In this document: piece after piece, positions 27,625-55,666 of the stretch
Layout: the number at the start of each line of letters is the position of its first letter
How positions within the stretch are numbered: the first letter of the stretch is position 1
Source of the DNA: a virus
Virus record (IMG/VR): IMGVR_UViG_3300035670_000132
Location: 1 to 64,000 of that record
Direction: 5' to 3' (one strand)
DNA length: 64,000 nucleotides
Translations under genes and position numbers: made by a program
Notes under the pieces: generated by a model
What the model was told of the DNA's origin: nothing
Database searches by the model: none
What the model saw: the letters and a program-made list of their open reading frames with translations, nothing else

Positions 27625-28833
27625 ATGGGTGTTTTTTCTGGTCCAGAAATAGAAAACGATCAACTAATTCTGTGTGTAGACGCAGCGAATTCAAAAAGCT
27701 GGAGCTATAACGTTCATCCTAAGCCAATTGACATTGGTGCTTGGTGGACCGCATCTAGCAATAGTACAGTAACCAGAGATTTGACATTCACTGCGACGAC
27801 ACAATCGCCAGCGGGTGGTGTTCCTATAAAAATGATAGTTTCTGGTACAGATCCCTATATAACGTCAACGCAAGTTTATCTTGCGCCGGCAGCAGATGGT
27901 CAGACATGGACTATCAGCGTTTATGCCAAATCAAGTGTCGCTACTACAGGCGAGCTTTTTATTTTGGGATTGAATTCTTCCAATACATACGTTGAAGCGC
28001 CATCTGGCACAATAAACATAACTAATAATTGGCAAAGATTCTCTTACACATACACATTCACAAATGGAACTATAGCTGGAATAGCAATCAGACTAGATGG
28101 ACCAAACAGCGGTTTCGGCACAGATGGAGTGACTGCGCCAACAATTTGGTGGGATGGTCTTCAAGTAGAGCGCAACTCTTCAGCAACTGCATTCAATCCA
28201 GTAACTAATGCATCAGGAAACAAAGTTCTTGATGTGAGCCCGAATGACTACACAGCGTCTTTCGTCGGCTCAACATCACACAACAACACTGGAGCAAAAT
28301 CATTCGATACTAATGCAACAGCAGTGACTCAGAACAATAACATTGCTATTCCTACAATCACTTTTGCTGATGCGTCTTCATATTCACTTGATTTTTGGGT
28401 AAAAATTCGCTCTAGCGCTCCGTCAACGTTTCATAGTTTGACTGGAAACAACGCAACAGCGCCATGGGTTATTCTTTACACAAACGACACTACAGGCGCA
28501 AGTTGGTTCATGAGATTCAGAAACGCATCATCAACATATCAAGATTTTTCGAACGTCACTAACTGGAACATCCAATCAAATTGGGCTAATGTTACACTCA
28601 CAATTTCAAATTCTAGAGTTTGTAGTTTCTATTTGAATGGTATCTTTAGACAATCAATAACACTTGCAACTTCTGCTTTAGATGCGGTCACTATTGGTGG
28701 TGGATATTCTTCGGCAGGAAACTACTATCCGTTCCAGGGCAGCATAGGTCTCGCTAAGTTCTACACACAGACGCTGACTGCTGACGAAGTGAGAAAACAT
28801 TTCACTGCTAATCGTTCTAGATTTTCAGTTTGA
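27625..28833 (+). CDS. LamG/concanavalin A-like lectin protein, paralog 6
   Basis: GPEI..D.L.LCVDAAN.KSW ... FYLNG ... LTADEVRKHFTANRSRFSV. Confidence 0.8.
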   Translation: MGVFSGPEIENDQLILCVDAANSKSWSYNVHPKPIDIGAWWTASSNSTVTRDLTFTATTQSPAGGVPIKMIVSGTDPYITSTQVYLAPAADGQTWTISVYAKSSVATTGELFILGLNSSNTYVEAPSGTINITNNWQRFSYTYTFTNGTIAGIAIRLDGPNSGFGTDGVTAPTIWWDGLQVERNSSATAFNPVTNASGNKVLDVSPNDYTASFVGSTSHNNTGAKSFDTNATAVTQNNNIAIPTITFADASSYSLDFWVKIRSSAPSTFHSLTGNNATAPWVILYTNDTTGASWFMRFRNASSTYQDFSNVTNWNIQSNWANVTLTISNSRVCSFYLNGIFRQSITLATSALDAVTIGGGYSSAGNYYPFQGSIGLAKFYTQTLTADEVRKHFTANRSRFSV

Positions 28834-28877
28834 TAAATAGCTGAAGTTATAAAAACAATAAAAGGAACTGAAGAGTC

Positions 28878-33866: not shown

Positions 33867-33912
33867 GAAGATTCCTTGTTGTATAAATAGAGAAAAACAA
33901 CAAGGAATCTTC
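33867..33912 (+). promoter_or_regulatory. late promoter (TATAAATA 33882-33889) within a 16-bp perfect inverted repeat that covers the gp13 SD
   Basis: GAAGATTCCTTGTTGT (33867-33882) and ACAACAAGGAATCTTC (33897-33912). Confidence 0.85.
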
Positions 33913-33914
33913 AC

Positions 33915-34661
33915 ATGGCAAGAATCACAACCCGCGAAGAGTTCAAGCAACACATTCTTAGAAATCTCGGTGCTCCGCTACTAGAAATCAACGTATCTGA
34001 TGATCAGATAGATGATGCTGTAGATGAATCGCTGCAATACTACTACGATTATCACTTTGATGGCACAGAAAAAGTCTACTTAGCACATCAAGTGACTGAG
34101 CAAGATATCGCGAATAGATATCTCACGATTCCAGAAAATATGATCAGTGTCATCAACATCTTTGACATTGGCACTAGCATCTCATCGTCTAACAATCTAT
34201 TTAACATTAGATATCAACTTGCATTGAATGACTTGTTTGCATTTAATACTGGACCATTTGCTTCGTATTACATGACGCTACAGAACGTAGCACTTGCTGA
34301 AGAGCTATTTGTTGGTAAGCAAGCAATTAGATTCAATCGTCACACAAACAAGCTCTACATTGATATGGCATGGAATGAAAAAACTCCTGCTGGCGATTAC
34401 ATCATTGTTGAAGGCTATCAAATTGTAGATCCAGAAACTTATCCAGACGTATGGGAAGATCGCTGGCTCAAGCGCTATGCGACAGCTATGCTGAAACAGC
34501 AATGGGGAACTAATCTCAAGAAGTTCGAGGGCATCGCTATGCCAGGCGGTGTCACATTCAACGGACAGAAAATATATGACGAAGCTGCTGCTGAACTTGA
34601 AAAGTTGGAAGCCGAGATGATTAGCAGTTACAGTCTTCCAGTTTCTGATATGATGGGATAA
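33915..34661 (+). CDS. gp13: neck protein gp13
   Basis: LR.LGAP..EINV.DDQ..D..D..LQY..DYHFDG; W..RWLK.YATA..K.QWG.NL.KF.G...PGGVT.NG. Confidence 0.93.
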   Translation: MARITTREEFKQHILRNLGAPLLEINVSDDQIDDAVDESLQYYYDYHFDGTEKVYLAHQVTEQDIANRYLTIPENMISVINIFDIGTSISSSNNLFNIRYQLALNDLFAFNTGPFASYYMTLQNVALAEELFVGKQAIRFNRHTNKLYIDMAWNEKTPAGDYIIVEGYQIVDPETYPDVWEDRWLKRYATAMLKQQWGTNLKKFEGIAMPGGVTFNGQKIYDEAAAELEKLEAEMISSYSLPVSDMMG

Positions 34662-38344: not shown

Positions 38345-40264
38345 ATGGCAGTAAATCTACTTTCACCAGGCGTGAAGATCACAGAAGCTGATCTAGTCAC
38401 AACAGTTCCAGCTGCTGGTCCTGTCGTTGGCGCTTCAGTTGGTGATTTTCGCTGGGGTCCAATCAACGCACCAACTCTAGTTTCTAGCGAAGCTGATCTA
38501 GTAGCTAAGTTCGGTAAGCCAGACGGAACAACAATCGTTGACTTTCTAGTCGCAGCAAACTTCCTATCTTATTCTGGCGCAGAATACGTAGTTCGCGCAG
38601 CAAATACAGACGCAGCACTAAACGCAACAGCAGAAGCAACAACAGGTTCTGGCACAGCAGGAACTGGTCTTCTAGTTGAAAATGATGACGTTTATGACGC
38701 AGAAGTCGCTGATGGTTCAGCAGACGTTGGTCCATGGATCGCTAAGTATGCTGGCTCACTAGGAAACTCACTAAAAGTTTCAGTTTGCCCAAGCGCAGCC
38801 GCATGGTCCAAAACACTAACAGGCACATGGGACGTAACAGTAGCATCTAACACAGCAACATCAACAGCGGGCGCTGCTGACGATGAACTAGCTGTTGGCG
38901 ATACAGTTGTTATTGGCGGAAATACACTAGTTGTTGCTAGCGTAACTGATGCAAATACAATCGTTTTCACATCAGATGCAACAGAAAACGTAACTGGCGG
39001 AACAGCAAACGCAGAATGGGCATACACAGACTTGTTTGATGCTGCACCAGGAACATCACTTTCAGCAGAACTAAAAGGCGCTTCAGCAGACGAAATGCAC
39101 ATCGTCGTTATTGACGAAGATGGTCTATTCTCTGGCACAAAGGGAACAGTTCTAGAAAAGTTTGCTGGCGTTTCAAAGGGCTCTGACGCACGTAGCACAG
39201 ACGGCGCTTCTAACTATTACAAAGATGTCATCAATGTTCGTTCAAAGCATATTCGTTGGGCAGATCACGACGACATGGGTTCCAATTGGGGAACAGCACT
39301 AGTTAGCTCTGCTGGCGTTTCTACTGCATACACAGAAACAGCAAGTCGTCCTGGTACATACAGCCTATCAGGTGGTTTAGACGCTGCACCAACAGCAGGC
39401 AACAAGCAAGCTGGATTCGCTCTTCTAAACAACAAAGAAACATACGGCGACGTAACTGTTCTAATTGCTGGCGTAGCTAATACAGCTACAGTCAACGCAA
39501 TGATCGCAATTGCTGAGTATCGCAAAGACTTGATGGTCACATTCTCACCAGAGTTTGATGACGTAGTAAACAATGCTGGCGGCGAGACTGACGCAGTAAA
39601 TACATTTGCAAATACAATTACACGCAGCAACTACGCTATCATGGACTCTGGCTGGAAGTATCAGTATAACAAGTATGCTGACAACTACGTTTGGGTTCCA
39701 CTAAACGCTGACGTTGCTGGATGCTTGGCAAGAGTTGATCAAGAGCGTGCATCATGGTTCTCACCAGCTGGCTATGCACAAGGTCGTATTCTAAATGCAG
39801 TCAAGCTAGCATGGAATCCAGACCAAAACGCTCGTGACGCACTCTACAAGAATGCAGTAAACCCAGTCATCAATCAGCCAGGTCGCGGCACAATCTTGTT
39901 CGGCGACAAGACATTCACAACAAGACCAGGTTCATTCAGCAGAATCAATGTTCGTCGTCTATTCATCACTCTAGAAAAGAGCATCGGCGCACTAGCTGCT
40001 GATCTACTATTCGAACAGAATGATGACGCAACAAGAGCTGGCTTTGTGAATACAGTTGAGCCATATCTACGCAGCGTCGTCGCTCAGCGTGGTATTGCAC
40101 AATTCGTTGTAGTTTGCAATGAGACAAATAACCCAGAAGATATCGTAAATGCTAACTCATTTGTCGCAGACATCTATGTTAGACCAGTATCTTCAATCAA
40201 CTTCATTCAGTTGAACTTCGTCTCAGTAGCAGGTGCAGCACAATTCGCAGCGATCGGCGGCTAA
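38345..40264 (+). CDS. gp18: tail sheath protein
   Basis: SPGV...E.D, F.WGP, W.SPAG..RG, LFGDKT, RINVRRLF, YV.P..SINFI.LNFV. Confidence 0.96.
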   Translation: MAVNLLSPGVKITEADLVTTVPAAGPVVGASVGDFRWGPINAPTLVSSEADLVAKFGKPDGTTIVDFLVAANFLSYSGAEYVVRAANTDAALNATAEATTGSGTAGTGLLVENDDVYDAEVADGSADVGPWIAKYAGSLGNSLKVSVCPSAAAWSKTLTGTWDVTVASNTATSTAGAADDELAVGDTVVIGGNTLVVASVTDANTIVFTSDATENVTGGTANAEWAYTDLFDAAPGTSLSAELKGASADEMHIVVIDEDGLFSGTKGTVLEKFAGVSKGSDARSTDGASNYYKDVINVRSKHIRWADHDDMGSNWGTALVSSAGVSTAYTETASRPGTYSLSGGLDAAPTAGNKQAGFALLNNKETYGDVTVLIAGVANTATVNAMIAIAEYRKDLMVTFSPEFDDVVNNAGGETDAVNTFANTITRSNYAIMDSGWKYQYNKYADNYVWVPLNADVAGCLARVDQERASWFSPAGYAQGRILNAVKLAWNPDQNARDALYKNAVNPVINQPGRGTILFGDKTFTTRPGSFSRINVRRLFITLEKSIGALAADLLFEQNDDATRAGFVNTVEPYLRSVVAQRGIAQFVVVCNETNNPEDIVNANSFVADIYVRPVSSINFIQLNFVSVAGAAQFAAIGG

Positions 40265-40337: not shown

Positions 40338-40871
40338 ATGTCATTTAGCGTAAACGATCTAAGAACGGCAATGGGTTTGGGCGTTCGTCCAAATCTATTC
40401 AGAGTCACATTTGCGACTGGTTTTGTGGGAGCACAGAACAGCCAAGCATCAGTTTTAGTGAAGTCGGCAGCACTACCAGGAGACACAATCGGAATGATTG
40501 AAGTTCCACACATGGGTGGTCGCAGACTAAAAGTTGCTGGTGATCGCACATTTGCTGACTGGACAATGACTGTTCTAAACGATAAAGACTATACTGTGAG
40601 AAAAGCACTAGAAACTTATCAAAATAAGTTTGTTGACATTGACTACACAAAGACAACGGTTGGAACAAGAATTGCTAACGGTGCTCCAGCAGCATTGACA
40701 GTCATTACAGTTGAGCAGCTAGACACAAACGGAAGTGCAACACTAAGAACTTATAAGTTGAATAACTGTTTCGTAACCGAAATTTCAGCAATTGATCTTT
40801 CATACGATAGCAGCGACGCAATTGAAGAGTACACAGTGAACTGGACTTATGATTACTTCACAGTATCTTAA
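40338..40871 (+). CDS. gp19: tail tube protein, copy A
   Basis: G.RPNLF.V, KSA.LPG..IG.IEVP..GR.LK.AGDRTF.DW..TV.ND, I.LSYD....IEE..V...Y. Confidence 0.9.
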   Translation: MSFSVNDLRTAMGLGVRPNLFRVTFATGFVGAQNSQASVLVKSAALPGDTIGMIEVPHMGGRRLKVAGDRTFADWTMTVLNDKDYTVRKALETYQNKFVDIDYTKTTVGTRIANGAPAALTVITVEQLDTNGSATLRTYKLNNCFVTEISAIDLSYDSSDAIEEYTVNWTYDYFTVS

Positions 40872-40874
40872 TAC

Positions 40875-40882
40875 TATAAATA
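40875..40882 (+). promoter_or_regulatory. T4-type late promoter
   Basis: TATAAATA followed by a strong SD (AAGGAGGT) for the second tube gene. Confidence 0.8.
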
Positions 40883-40901: not shown

Positions 40902-41438
40902 ATGGCTATCTCAACAATTACAGCAATCACTTCTCAACTAAAGTCTGGTGCGCGCCCAAATCTATTTAATGTTGCAGTGACAGCTCCGGGTGGCGCAACT
41001 TCAACAACATTGCCAACAAATGCTAGTTTGCTCTGCAAAGCAGGTCAAGCTCCAGCATACACAATTGGCATGATTGAAGTTCCATTCAGAGGAAGAAGAA
41101 TCAAGCTACCGGGTGATCGCACATTCGCAGAATGGACTGCGACATTCATCGTCGATGAAGGATACAAAGTAAGAAAATACTTTGAAGAGTGGGCAAACTT
41201 TGTCAAAGCAAGAGACTTCACTTCTGGCGCAAACAGAACAGTCGCTGGAAACAACGTTGGCTACTACGGCACTATTGACGTCATTCAACTAAGTGACGAC
41301 AATAAAGCAGTGAGAACATATTCTTTGAAAGATGTGTTCCCAACAGACGTAGCTCAGATTGATGTCTCTTATGACACGACTGATGCTATCATGGAATTCA
41401 GTGTCACTTTCCAGTATCACTACTTCACAGTAAAGTAA
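40902..41438 (+). CDS. gp19: tail tube protein, copy B
   Basis: GARPNLF, IEVPFRGR.IK.PGDRTF.EWT.T, FPT.V..ID.SYD..D.I.EF.VTFQY. Confidence 0.92.
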   Translation: MAISTITAITSQLKSGARPNLFNVAVTAPGGATSTTLPTNASLLCKAGQAPAYTIGMIEVPFRGRRIKLPGDRTFAEWTATFIVDEGYKVRKYFEEWANFVKARDFTSGANRTVAGNNVGYYGTIDVIQLSDDNKAVRTYSLKDVFPTDVAQIDVSYDTTDAIMEFSVTFQYHYFTVK

Positions 41439-41486
41439 ATTGAAGTATTTCGCAACGACTAAATAGTTGCGTAATAGTTTTCAACA

Positions 41487-41517
41487 AAAAGGGGCTATTA
41501 CGCCCCTTTTCTTTTTT
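41487..41517 (+). terminator. intrinsic terminator after tube genes, part of an alternative-structure switch
   Basis: AAAAGGGGC-TATTAC-GCCCCTTTT followed by CTTTTTT. Confidence 0.8.
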
Positions 41518-41534
41518 GTCAACAAGGACTTCAC

Positions 41535-43196
41535 ATGGCTATTCGTTTATTTGGTTACAAGATCGGCAAAGACGACACAGAAAAAGATGATCTAAAATCT
41601 TTCGTTCCTCCAGCAGATGACGAAGGCGCTGTGTCAGTCATGGGCGGCGGCGTCTACGGAACATACGTTGATCTTGAAGGTCAGATTAGAAACGACGCAG
41701 AACTAATCAAAAAATACAGAGAGATGTCTCAGCAAGCTGAATGCGATGCAGCAATTGACGATATTGTCAATGAAGCAATCGTATATCAAGAAGATGACTA
41801 TCCTGTGCAGATCAATCTTGAAAAGCTAGAGCAGCCAGAATCTATCAAAAAGAAAATTAGTGATGAGTATTACTATCTACTAAAGCTGTTGGACTTCAAT
41901 AATCAGAGTTATGACATTTTCCGTCGCTGGTACGTTGATGGAAGACTATTCTATCACATGATGATTGATGACAAAACACCAAGAGCTGGATTGAAAGAGA
42001 TTCGTTACGTTGATCCAAGAAAGATCAGAAAAGTAAGAGAGATCAATAAGAGCAAGCCTCCAGTTGGAACTGGTGCACAGTCACTAGAGAATATTCAACA
42101 GAAACCGCTTGAATATTATGTGTTTTCAGAACAAGGATTCGCAAGAGACAATTCGCAAGGATTGAAAATTTCTCCAGACGCAATTTGCTATGTTCACTCT
42201 GGCATCACAGACAAAGACGGTAAAGTCATCGTATCTCATTTGCATAAAGCAATCAAGCCGATGAATCAATTGAGAATGCTTGAAGATGCGACAGTCATTT
42301 ACAGATTGTCTAGAGCACCTGAGAGAAGAATTTTCTACATTGACGTTGGTAACTTGCCAAAGATCAAAGCTGAACAGTATCTTCGTGACATCATGCAAAA
42401 GTACAAGAACAAGCTAGTTTACGATGCGCAGACTGGTGAAATTCGTGATGATCGCAGATTTCAGACTATGCTTGAAGATTTCTGGCTACCTCGTCGCGAA
42501 GGTGGAAAAGGAACAGAGATCACGACACTTCCAGCTGGCCAGAACTTAGGCGAAATTGAAGACGTTCTTTACTTCCAGAAGAAGCTATACAAGGCGCTAA
42601 ATGTTCCAGTTTCACGTTTAGAATCAGACACCGGGTTCTCTCTTGGTCGATCATCAGAAATCACTCGCGACGAATTGAAGTTCACTAAGTTCGTTCAAAG
42701 ACTTAGACTTAGATTCTCACACTTGTTTGACAGACTTCTTGAGACACAACTTCTGCTAAAGGGAATTTGCACTCGCCAAGAATGGCAACAGATGCGCGAA
42801 CAAATCAACTACGATTTCGTCGGTGATCAATACTTCAGTGAGTTCAAAGAAGCTGAGATCATGAAAGAGCGCATCGCGATTCTTACAGACATTGATCAGT
42901 TCGTTGGCAAGTATATCTCACGTAACTTTGTTCGCACTAAAATTTTGCGTCAAACTGAAGATGACATCAAGCAAATTGATCAAGAGATGAAAGAAGAGTT
43001 GCCACTTGAAGAAGCTGATGCTGAAGCTGAAGCAGCAAATCAAATGCCACCTCCGCCACCTCCACCTCCAGCAGCTAAGATCGTGATTCAGAAAGAAGAA
43101 CTTCGCGACGTAGATGACACAGATCAAAAAGAGCTAGCGAAGTCGATGACAAAGTTTTTTGATGTGTTGACTGAAGAAACGAAGAATGACAAGTAA
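41535..43196 (+). CDS. gp20: portal vertex protein
   Basis: YR.M....[59 protein letters not shown]. Confidence 0.97.
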
Positions 43197-44304
43197 GATA
43201 TTAGATGACGCTATCAATTTAGCAACGTCAATAGCGTATACTAAACGCGAGATTGGCAAGCTAAGAGATGTCATCGAAGAGCTAAAAACTACTCAGCAAG
43301 ACAAGCTGATTGTTGAGTACGTTGAAGGTCCTCGTGGTGAGCAAGGACCTCGTGGCATGCCTGGCTTGAGAGGCGACACAGGAGAACGAGGTCTTATTGG
43401 CGAACAAGGACCACAAGGCGAACAAGGTATTCAGGGAATTCAAGGCGAACAAGGTATTCAAGGACCAGTAGGTCCACAAGGCGAACAAGGCATTCAAGGC
43501 GAACGCGGAGAAAAGGGCGAAAAAGGTGACAAAGGCGACACTGGAGAACGCGGCGAAAAAGGCGACAAAGGAGAGAAGGGTGATCCTGGCATTCAGGGTC
43601 CTGTTGGCGCTGTCGGTCCTAAAGGCGAGAAGGGTGACAAGGGCGACAAAGGCGAGAAGGGCGACACTGGAGCACAAGGAAAACAAGGCGCTAAAGGTTC
43701 TAAAGGCGACAAGGGTGACAAAGGTGATCAAGGACCTATGGGACCGGCTGGTCTTCCTGGCACGAAAGGTGACACGGGCGAAGTAGGGCCACAAGGTCCA
43801 GCTGGCGTAAACGGCAAAGACGGCAAGACTCCAGATGTCAAGCCGTTCATCGAGCAGATCAGCGAACACTACAAGAAACTTCAGTCTGCATTGATCACTA
43901 AAGTGAACATGGCTATCACTAATCTTGGTGGTGGCGGTGGCAGCGGCGGTGGTTCTGTCAACATTCTTGACAACGATGACGTCGAATTCGCTCAACTGTC
44001 TTCAGTCTCAAACAACGCAATTCTAATATTTGACTCAACTAAGAAGAAGTTCATTGTTCGCGATCTAGTAGAGTTCATAAATAGTGTACAAACAGGAGTA
44101 GAAGTGCAGTACAACAAACTCATTGATGTATCTGGCGATTACACTTACATTGGTGAAGCAGTACCAGGCACATCTCAATCAGCATCAACTTGGCGCATCA
44201 AGCGTGTAGAGCAAATAGGACCAGACTACAACATTCTATGGGCAAGTGGCTCAGCAGAATTTGATAAAGTCTGGAACGATAGAACAACTTATACTTACTT
44301 CTAA
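43186..44304 (+). CDS. collagen triple-helix repeat protein (putative head/neck fibre)
   Basis: 56 uninterrupted Gly-X-Y triplets (43327-43830), a Gly linker and a small C-terminal domain YIGEA.PG...S...WRIKR...W..R..Y. Confidence 0.9.
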
Positions 44305-55599: not shown

Positions 55600-55625
55600 A
55601 GGGGCTCTTCGGAGCCCCTTTTTTT
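55600..55625 (+). terminator. intrinsic terminator after gp23 with cUUCGg tetraloop
   Basis: AGGGGCTC-TTCG-GAGCCCCT followed by a T run. Confidence 0.92.
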
Positions 55626-55666
55626 GTCACATAAATAGTGCATAAGACACATAAGGCTCGATTAAT

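Follow-up and report, generated by a model that had tools for sequence, protein, structure and literature searches.

T4 needs its tail-tube and portal proteins in widely differing copy numbers. The tube and portal genes of the phage studied here lie side by side and run in the same late direction, and the question raised by this locus is how their expression is uncoupled; a protein-free RNA device would explain it. The window analysed was a stretch of 64,000 nucleotides (positions 1 to 64,000 of IMG/VR record IMGVR_UViG_3300035670_000132). We propose that positions 41440-41518 form a conserved cis-acting cassette that gates transcription of the sheath/tube operon into the portal gene by kinetic, origin-dependent antitermination, a reading to which we give a probability of roughly 0.4. 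Taken more broadly, the cassette probably controls the amount of transcription that enters the portal gene.

The 78.5-kb contig holding the window belongs to a T4-like myovirus, and all genes at its sheath-tube-portal locus are on the + strand. The tail sheath gene (38345-40264, from the gene listing of the window) is followed by two tail-tube paralogs, the first at 40338-40871 (177 aa) and the second at 40902-41438 (178 aa; PHROG 45 tail tube, E 1.9e-50), and then by the gene for the portal protein, a gp20 homologue, at 41535-43196 (PHROG 213 portal, E 5.6e-208). The stop codon of the second tube paralog occupies 41436-41438, and the tube-portal spacer measures 96 nt. The closest sequenced phages are distant, reaching 60-76% nucleotide identity only in short stretches of the genes for portal and tube. 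T4 late promoters carry TATAAATA at -13 to -6, the -13 position being poorly conserved in T4-like phages (PMC1524935). In the window, TATAAATA occurs 11 times versus 3.1 expected, with 10 of the copies on the + strand; copies precede the sheath gene and sit between the tube paralogs, and C/G/A-ATAAATA boxes likewise lie 5' of genes. This enrichment, together with the placement of boxes upstream of genes, indicates that the phage uses T4-type late promoters. One canonical TATAAATA is found at 40875-40882, inside the 30-nt gap separating the two tandem tube paralogs, from which it follows that tube paralog 2 has a late promoter of its own. This gene is the upstream source of the read-through RNA that reaches the cassette.

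Within the spacer, three segments and an intrinsic terminator are arranged on the + strand. Segment 1 (41440-41456) has a core, CGCAAC (41451-41456), and two lower stems specific to the window, TATT (41446-41449) and TTGAAG (41440-41445). A late-promoter-like box, ACTAAATA (41458-41465), lies in the loop between segment 1 and segment 2 (GTTGCGTAATAGTTTT, 41466-41481); the GTTGCG of segment 2 pairs with segment 1, and its GTAATAG(TTTT) pairs with segment 3. Segment 3 (GGGGCTATTACGC, 41491-41503), which is complementary to segment 2, runs from the upper 5' arm of the terminator through its loop to the second nucleotide of the 3' arm. Stem 1:2 joins TATTTCGCAAC (41446-41456) to GTTGCGTAATA (41466-41476) through 6 bp, a T.T mismatch and 4 bp, with GACTAAATA (41457-41465) as its loop. 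Stem 2:3 joins GCGTAATAG+TTTT (41469-41481) to GGGG+CTATTACGC (41491-41503) through 9 Watson-Crick and 4 G:U pairs. The terminator itself (helix 3:4, 41487-41518) is the stem-loop AAAAGGGGC-TATTAC-GCCCCTTTT (41487-41510) followed by CTTTTTT, that is, a 9-bp stem with 5 G:C pairs, a 6-nt loop and the U-tract TTTTCTTTTTT; it ends 16 nt 5' of the portal ATG. By reading of the sequence, a Shine-Dalgarno-like AAGGA for the portal gene lies at 41523-41527, 7 nt before the ATG at 41535, and this ribosome site is outside all three helices. The only open reading frame overlapping the cassette is a TTG-started frame of 42 aa (41467-41595) without a ribosome site. All three stems of the original prediction, which had been read from the letters of the window, were found exactly where it had placed them. 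Its description of them as mutually exclusive needs qualification. As drawn, the stems do overlap, and a nested model does not allow 2:3 together with 3:4, but the conserved 6-bp core of 1:2 and the 7-bp conserved part of 2:3 share only G41471.

Folding of 41436-41534 with RNAfold gave hairpin 1:2 and the terminator together at -28.3 kcal/mol (z = -4.4), a value matched by none of 200 shuffles, and in this structure 1:2 is lengthened by pairing of 41440-41445 with 41479-41484. The terminator was the top match of a consensus scan across 34-50 kb. By scan and fold, a strong intrinsic terminator is predicted to end the tube transcript before the portal start. The stretch from the terminator to the portal ATG contains no late-promoter box, and the + strand of the window has its next one at 44076; every portal transcript must therefore cross the terminator, and the same is true in all relatives, in which a canonical promoter stands upstream of the terminator. 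The complementarity of the spacer to the terminator was also compared with chance. A Watson-Crick match of 9 nt between 48 nt of spacer and the terminator arose in 0.075% of 20,000 shuffles, and a match of at least 7 nt in 2.7%.

The next step concerns where an RNA started in the loop of 1:2 would begin. The T4 rule, in which the box spans -13 to -6, puts the predicted +1 at G41471 on the + strand, the G of GUAAUAG, in agreement with the start at about 41471 that had been guessed beforehand. The sequence at this position contains no homopolymer. The box being in the loop of 1:2 and the predicted +1 in its 3' arm, late RNA would be made without the 5' arm. The conserved part of 2:3 corresponds exactly to the first 7 nt of the RNA predicted from G41471, and pairing with the terminator past these 7 bp is not conserved (CTATTACAG variants were found), which fits an RNA that begins at this G. 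The same two facts, complementarity that begins exactly at the predicted +1 and its lack of conservation beyond 7 bp, would also suit a portal mRNA whose first nucleotide is paired, be it within 2:3 or in a pseudoknot with the loop of the terminator, and which is thereby protected from 5'-end-dependent decay, with termination playing no part. We regard this explanation as decidedly unlikely: once made, the terminator is the minimum-energy fold and leaves the 5' end free, hairpin 1:2 goes unexplained, and the terminator must still be passed.

A late-promoter variant had been claimed for the loop of 1:2, and this was borne out for the family more fully than for the window. At least 86 of 94 related versions have a loop box with A at -12 (TATAAATA in 39, CATAAATA in 35, AATAAATA in 10 and GATAAATA in 2), whereas the window has C at that position. 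The box ACTAAATA is found in 4 family members, and in a few others the box is displaced; relatives carry NATAAATA at the same spacing as the loop box of the window. The -12 adenine is flipped into a pocket of gp55 in the T4 open complex (PMC7892883), and CTAAATA is the consensus in Aeh1 only, in which gp55 has diverged (PMC1524935). The box of the window, with C at -12, thus departs from the T4 gp55-type requirement, while the other late promoters of the window have A, and it is probably a weak promoter. Members with CTAAATA might have compensated by a more open 2:3 in read-through RNA, but no consistent trend was seen. A TTGA-like motif is often present upstream of the loop promoter and was considered as a sigma-70 -35 box. 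This candidate was set aside: the motif in many cases follows the tube stop codon directly, and its spacing to the TAAATA hexamer differs, with 14 nt in the window against 17 nt in L003.

From these parts, the proposed gate would operate as follows. RNA begun at the loop promoter would start at G41471 and would therefore be without segment 1. Its first 7-11 nt (GUAAUAG+UUUU) would pair with GGGG+CUAUUAC once segment 3 emerges from the polymerase, and this pre-formed 2:3 would have to open before the terminator stem could close, so that the polymerase would tend to continue past the U-tract into the portal gene. In tube-derived RNA, hairpin 1:2 would form first and hold part of segment 2; 2:3 would then form later or more rarely, and a larger share of these transcripts would terminate. 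The effect would be kinetic and partial, and not that of an on/off switch. In its strongest form, the idea is that of a self-contained, factor-free sensor of the promoter of origin: pairing of the first seven templated nucleotides with the loop of the next terminator would block that terminator kinetically, so that only locally started RNA enters the portal gene and the abundant RNA of the tail operon stops. That such a sensor operates in a broad uncultured T4-like clade is possible, although we hold it more tentatively than the gate itself. If true, it would be the transcription-termination counterpart of the hairpin of T4 gene e, a natural insulation of adjacent operons with very different output, and perhaps of use as a small portable insulator for synthetic operons.

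Conservation was assessed in 94 distinct versions from uncultured T4-like phages. The search started from portal-anchored IMG/VR loci, among which the element was also found in contigs with portals 64-72% identical in protein, and the family was assembled by motif scans of IMG/VR and JGI metagenomes. In all 94 versions the cassette lies directly 5' of the portal start and a tube homologue lies upstream, with 40-54% protein identity to that of the window (74% in one). The stretch (N)ATAAATA-NNTGCGTAATAG and the terminator loop CTATTAC are nearly unchanged across the family. In the alignment, TAAATA..TGCGTAATAG is invariant in 94/94, as is CTATT, and the adjoining AC and G/C positions of the stem are at least 90% conserved. 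The spacer from TAATAG to CTATT varies in sequence as well as in length (12-22 nt). A further scan was made unbiased by leaving TAATAG and the terminator loop unspecified; it returned TAATAG only, with the loops TATTAC (55), TATTAT (6, compatible with G:U pairing) and TATTTC (2). CTATTTC, which breaks one pair of 2:3, is present in three members. Judged from this alignment, the features of the cassette are under strong purifying selection in the 94 relatives. Whatever the mechanism, some 25 near-invariant non-coding nucleotides beside genes at 40-54% protein identity mark a functionally important element.

The position of the cassette relative to the tube gene is less constant. The distance from the tube stop codon to the TAAATA of the box ranges from about 2 to 55 nt across the family and is mostly 18-32 nt. 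This range bears on a translation-coupled form of attenuation, in which a ribosome at the tube stop codon (41436-41438) would mask the lower part of 1:2 and free segment 2. The geometry of the window is suggestive, in that the stop codon is separated from the extended stem by 1 nt and from the core by 12 nt. Given the variable distance, and given that only the window-specific lower stem would be masked, we consider such coupling extremely improbable.

Outside the family, no record with the element was found among the cultured phages of INPHARED, and no Rfam family matched at threshold (best match 25.3 bits versus a gathering threshold of 60). A pattern of 18 positions (16 fixed bases) gave 118 matches in GTDB genomes; all are without the full element and look like chance. 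Seven AT-rich IMG/VR contigs (L243, L266, L269, L282, L283, L287 and L296) share a conserved stretch ending in a GGGGCTATTACGCCCC hairpin, which is flanked by TATA..TATAA, has no upstream GTAATAG and stands in unrelated context. As GGGGCTATTACGCCCC is also a hairpin in these unrelated contigs, the motif by itself is not diagnostic.

A strong terminator 30-45 nt after a promoter box, with both ends conserved, could also delimit a small late RNA of about 45 nt that runs from the loop promoter to the terminator and uses GUAAUAG as a seed. We judge this very unlikely, the middle part being variable in length and sequence and the element being always fused to the portal ribosome site. In addition, sister lineages have the promoter in a single hairpin, or a terminator and then a promoter that feeds the portal gene, and the lack of a match to any Rfam family likewise speaks against it.

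The gate depends on three helices, and the relatives allow each to be examined for compensatory change. In the terminator stem, 5 of the 9 pairs change on both sides (e.g. GGGAAGC/GCTTCCC and GGAGGC/GCCTCC), 96.4% of cells are paired across the family, and the covariation score is 0.130 versus 0.067 for shuffled alignments, with none of 500 shuffles reaching 0.130. In hairpin 1:2, the CGC/GCG of the core is almost invariant, and the core of segment 1 pairs with GTTGCG in 91 of the 94 relatives. MAFFT misplaces gaps in the loop of 1:2, so that the formal pair count covers the outer 1:2 pairs only; to tabulate the inner pairs, the sequences were anchored on CGC/GCG. These inner pairs switch between xTTGCG/CGCAAx and xATGCG/CGCATx, with T-A going to A-T and G-C to A-T or T-A, and several A-to-G or C-to-T changes retain G:U pairs. 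A large clade has a continuous 1:2 stem of 8-9 bp, TTACGCAA(T)/(A)TTGCGTAA. Convincing segment 1 sequences were lacking in three members (L232, L352 and L380); a downstream ACGC was considered as a substitute in L352 and L380, and folding gave no support for it. RNAalifold recovers both hairpin 1:2 and the terminator. Cells with G:U numbered far more than cells with A.C (49/6, 8/0 and 33/2 for the three helices), which points to folding of the sense-strand RNA, and the compensatory and G:U-preserving changes indicate that the terminator stem and hairpin 1:2 fold in this RNA.

Helix 2:3 behaves differently from the other two. Of its 7 Watson-Crick pairs, five never vary; the remaining two change in one partner only, so that 8 sequences have G:U and 4 have a broken pair. 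No covariation of 2:3 was found in the 94 relatives, and the evidence for this predicted helix is the complementarity of two invariant 7-mers and nothing else. A check of related spacers for covariation had been suggested at the outset; the terminator and 1:2 showed such covariation, and 2:3 showed none. The absence of compensatory change in the 7-mers, while neighboring stems covary, suggests a constraint beyond base pairing, and their invariance would be explained equally well by sequence-specific recognition by a factor. GUAAUAG/CUAUUAC, either single-stranded or as the 2:3 duplex, would then be an operator at which a protein of the phage or the host controls termination, portal translation or mRNA stability. 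We consider a trans-acting factor of this kind unlikely. No candidate protein was identified; the 78.5-kb contig has a single copy of the promoter together with GTAAT, and hence no regulon; and the spacing of 12-22 nt between the halves argues against a rigid dimer on DNA. Two further ideas, a mobile repeat and a DNA-level palindrome bound by a dimeric protein, were also considered and appear unlikely in view of the same half-site spacing, the excess of G:U over A.C and the single copy in the contig.

We return to the gate and to whether the folding energies would allow it. In RNA started at 41471, 2:3 is the sole fold (-6.7 kcal/mol) until the 3' arm of the terminator emerges; once this arm has been made, the terminator is the minimum-energy fold at -9.5 to -13.9 kcal/mol. 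Helix 2:3 of the window amounts to about -6.7 to -8.4 kcal/mol versus this -9.5 to -13.9 kcal/mol for the terminator, and the family means are -6 to -10 versus -14 to -19 kcal/mol, the terminator always being the more stable. Any effect of 2:3 on termination must therefore be kinetic. In promoter-started RNA cut after segment 3 and before segment 4, the probability of 2:3 is about 0.98 across the family, so that the antiterminator proposed for this RNA is predicted to form ahead of segment 4, although it is less stable than the terminator that follows. In a model that allows no pseudoknots, the barrier from 2:3 to the terminator is 12-14 kcal/mol at 37 °C and 15-19 kcal/mol at 20 °C, which would make 2:3 a real kinetic trap. 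In kissing-loop geometry, however, the stem of a hairpin with a 6-nt loop can in principle close without the loop giving up its pairing to another strand; since the terminator loop may stay paired in this way, the barrier from the nested model is an upper bound and the true value may be well below it.

The read-through RNA is the weaker side of the gate. The RNA ending at 41501 has both the 1:2 core and 2:3 in its minimum-energy fold. Passage from pre-formed 1:2 to 2:3 costs 8.1 kcal/mol in the window and 9.3 kcal/mol on average in the family, and at equilibrium the probability of 2:3 in read-through RNA is 0.95 in the window and spans 0.00-1.00, with a mean of 0.47, across the family. Hairpin 1:2 is thus not a robust block, and the supposition that read-through RNA is held in 1:2 is weakened by the equilibrium value for the window. 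In the modeled folds, discrimination by RNA origin, if there is any, would therefore be kinetic and partial. In the copy of the window, 2:3 may mainly set how leaky the terminator is for read-through RNA.

The same numbers give weight to a constitutively leaky terminator, in which 2:3 forms in all transcripts and sets a fixed efficiency of termination, hence the tube-to-portal ratio, with no sensing of the promoter; the box and 1:2 would serve to add transcripts or to stabilise the 3' end of the tube mRNA. The read-through fold of the window, with 2:3 at a probability of 0.95 beside the 1:2 core, is as this account would have it, as are the C at -12 of the window box and the three members without a convincing segment 1. 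It nevertheless leaves unexplained why the pairing of 1:2 is kept up by compensatory and G:U changes and why a canonical box stands at fixed loop spacing in at least 86 of the 94 relatives, and in about half of the family 1:2 does suppress 2:3 at equilibrium. We therefore hold constitutive leakiness to be rather unlikely. For the promoter-sensing model as first put forward, the balance is mixed. The three-segment layout is kept in 94 relatives, portal transcripts must cross the terminator, and distant relatives embed a promoter in a hairpin; set against this are the C at -12, an antiterminator weaker than the terminator, formation of 2:3 by read-through RNA and the lack of covariation in 2:3. 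The model is plausible, unproven, and weaker for this window.

The design of the cassette can be compared with several known systems. In T4, soc is controlled by a late promoter placed in a hairpin. The same is known for T4 e (lysozyme) and I-TevI, in which a late promoter lies inside an RNA hairpin that controls translation (Uzan & Miller 2010, PMC3014915). The cassette has in common with e and I-TevI a gp55-type late promoter within a hairpin-forming region, and an upstream-started RNA that folds both arms beside a late-promoter RNA without the 5' arm, the fate of the RNA depending on its start. In e and I-TevI the hairpin hides the ribosome binding site, controls translation and separates early from late RNA. 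A hairpin of this kind, with a start-site-dependent block to translation, also occurs in the genome of the window, at 33867-33917. In the cassette, unlike in e, no structure covers the ribosome site, and what is controlled would be the termination of transcription; RNA of both classes is late, and the effect would pass through a third segment to a separate terminator. We rate the cassette as a variation on the T4 principle of a late promoter inside a hairpin. In the literature, no description was found of the cassette or of a templated promoter-of-origin version acting at a terminator. If true, the gate would add a termination-level version to the classic start-site-dependent hairpins of T4.

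A closer parallel to the pairing step is offered by pyrG of Bacillus subtilis, in which the transcript, through pairing of its 5' end to the 5' strand of the downstream terminator hairpin, prevents termination. As far as the account in PMC4448216 goes, this attenuation works without a protein factor (Meng, Turnbough & Switzer 2004, as cited there). In the cassette, GUAAUAG+UUUU at the predicted 5' end is similarly complementary to GGGG+CUAUUAC of the 5' strand of the terminator. The pairing segment of pyrG is an extra run of non-templated G produced by reiterative transcription at low CTP, whereas that of the cassette is templated, and the variable would be the promoter of origin. In attenuators of the trp type, helices 1:2, 2:3 and 3:4 are the anti-antiterminator, the antiterminator and the terminator, and the order of synthesis decides among them. 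The cassette has the same formal layout of three helices. It differs in lacking a leader peptide and any sensor, whether of ligand, tRNA or protein type, in that 2:3 is weaker than 3:4, and in that the 1:2 core has just one nucleotide in common with the conserved 2:3. The put RNA of phage HK022 binds RNA polymerase and modifies it processively. Like the cassette, it is a promoter-proximal, factor-independent RNA element that allows read-through of terminators; the action proposed for the cassette is instead a local competition for a strand of the terminator.

Other portal junctions show how the same place can be organised. In the gene 19-20 spacer of T4 and in L013-L017, a hairpin or terminator is followed by TATAAATA. 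These junctions stand in the same place and have the same task, to end the tail-gene RNA and to give the portal gene its own late promoter; because the promoter is downstream of the terminator, no bypass is needed, whereas the family of the window has the reverse order. The ordinary order of terminator and then late promoter also occurs in the genome of the window, at 55600-55640, where a terminator-like hairpin with a T-run is immediately followed by CATAAATA. Among the portal-anchored loci, 17 of 50 distinct portal-upstream spacers have a late-promoter box inside one hairpin; the stems are unrelated and mostly of 13-14 bp (7 bp in one), and a U-tract follows in some. More distant T4-like contigs show the box at the top of the single hairpin or in its loop, as a promoter embedded in a terminator-like hairpin: L024, L026, L028, L029, L033-L037, L039, L040, L046, L049, L053, L063 and L064, a group in which the hairpins are G+C-rich and of 13-14 bp, with TATAAATA or CTAAATA as the box, about 30-80 nt before the portal start. 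Going by sequence, RNA started at such a box would be without the 5' arm. The family of the window looks like a three-segment elaboration of this promoter-in-hairpin theme, of which the single hairpin is the simpler version.

A possible independent analogue with three segments was seen in L023, where GGGAC..TATAAATA..GTCC(T) and then a terminator, GGGGGGAC-TATG-GTCCCCCC, lie about 30-100 nt before the portal start. Segment 2 there mimics the terminator 3' arm, but with just 4-5 bp of pairing this may be chance. In the window, a 7-bp hairpin (TTTCAGT/GCTGAAG) located about 60 nt 5' of a gene start has GATAAATA (28833-28840) in its loop, which may also be chance. At 33867-33917, a perfect 16-bp hairpin (GAAGATTCCTTGTTGT / ACAACAAGGAATCTTC) has TATAAATA in its loop; its 3' arm contains AAGGA and ends just 5' of an ATG, hiding the ribosome site in the manner of T4 gene e.
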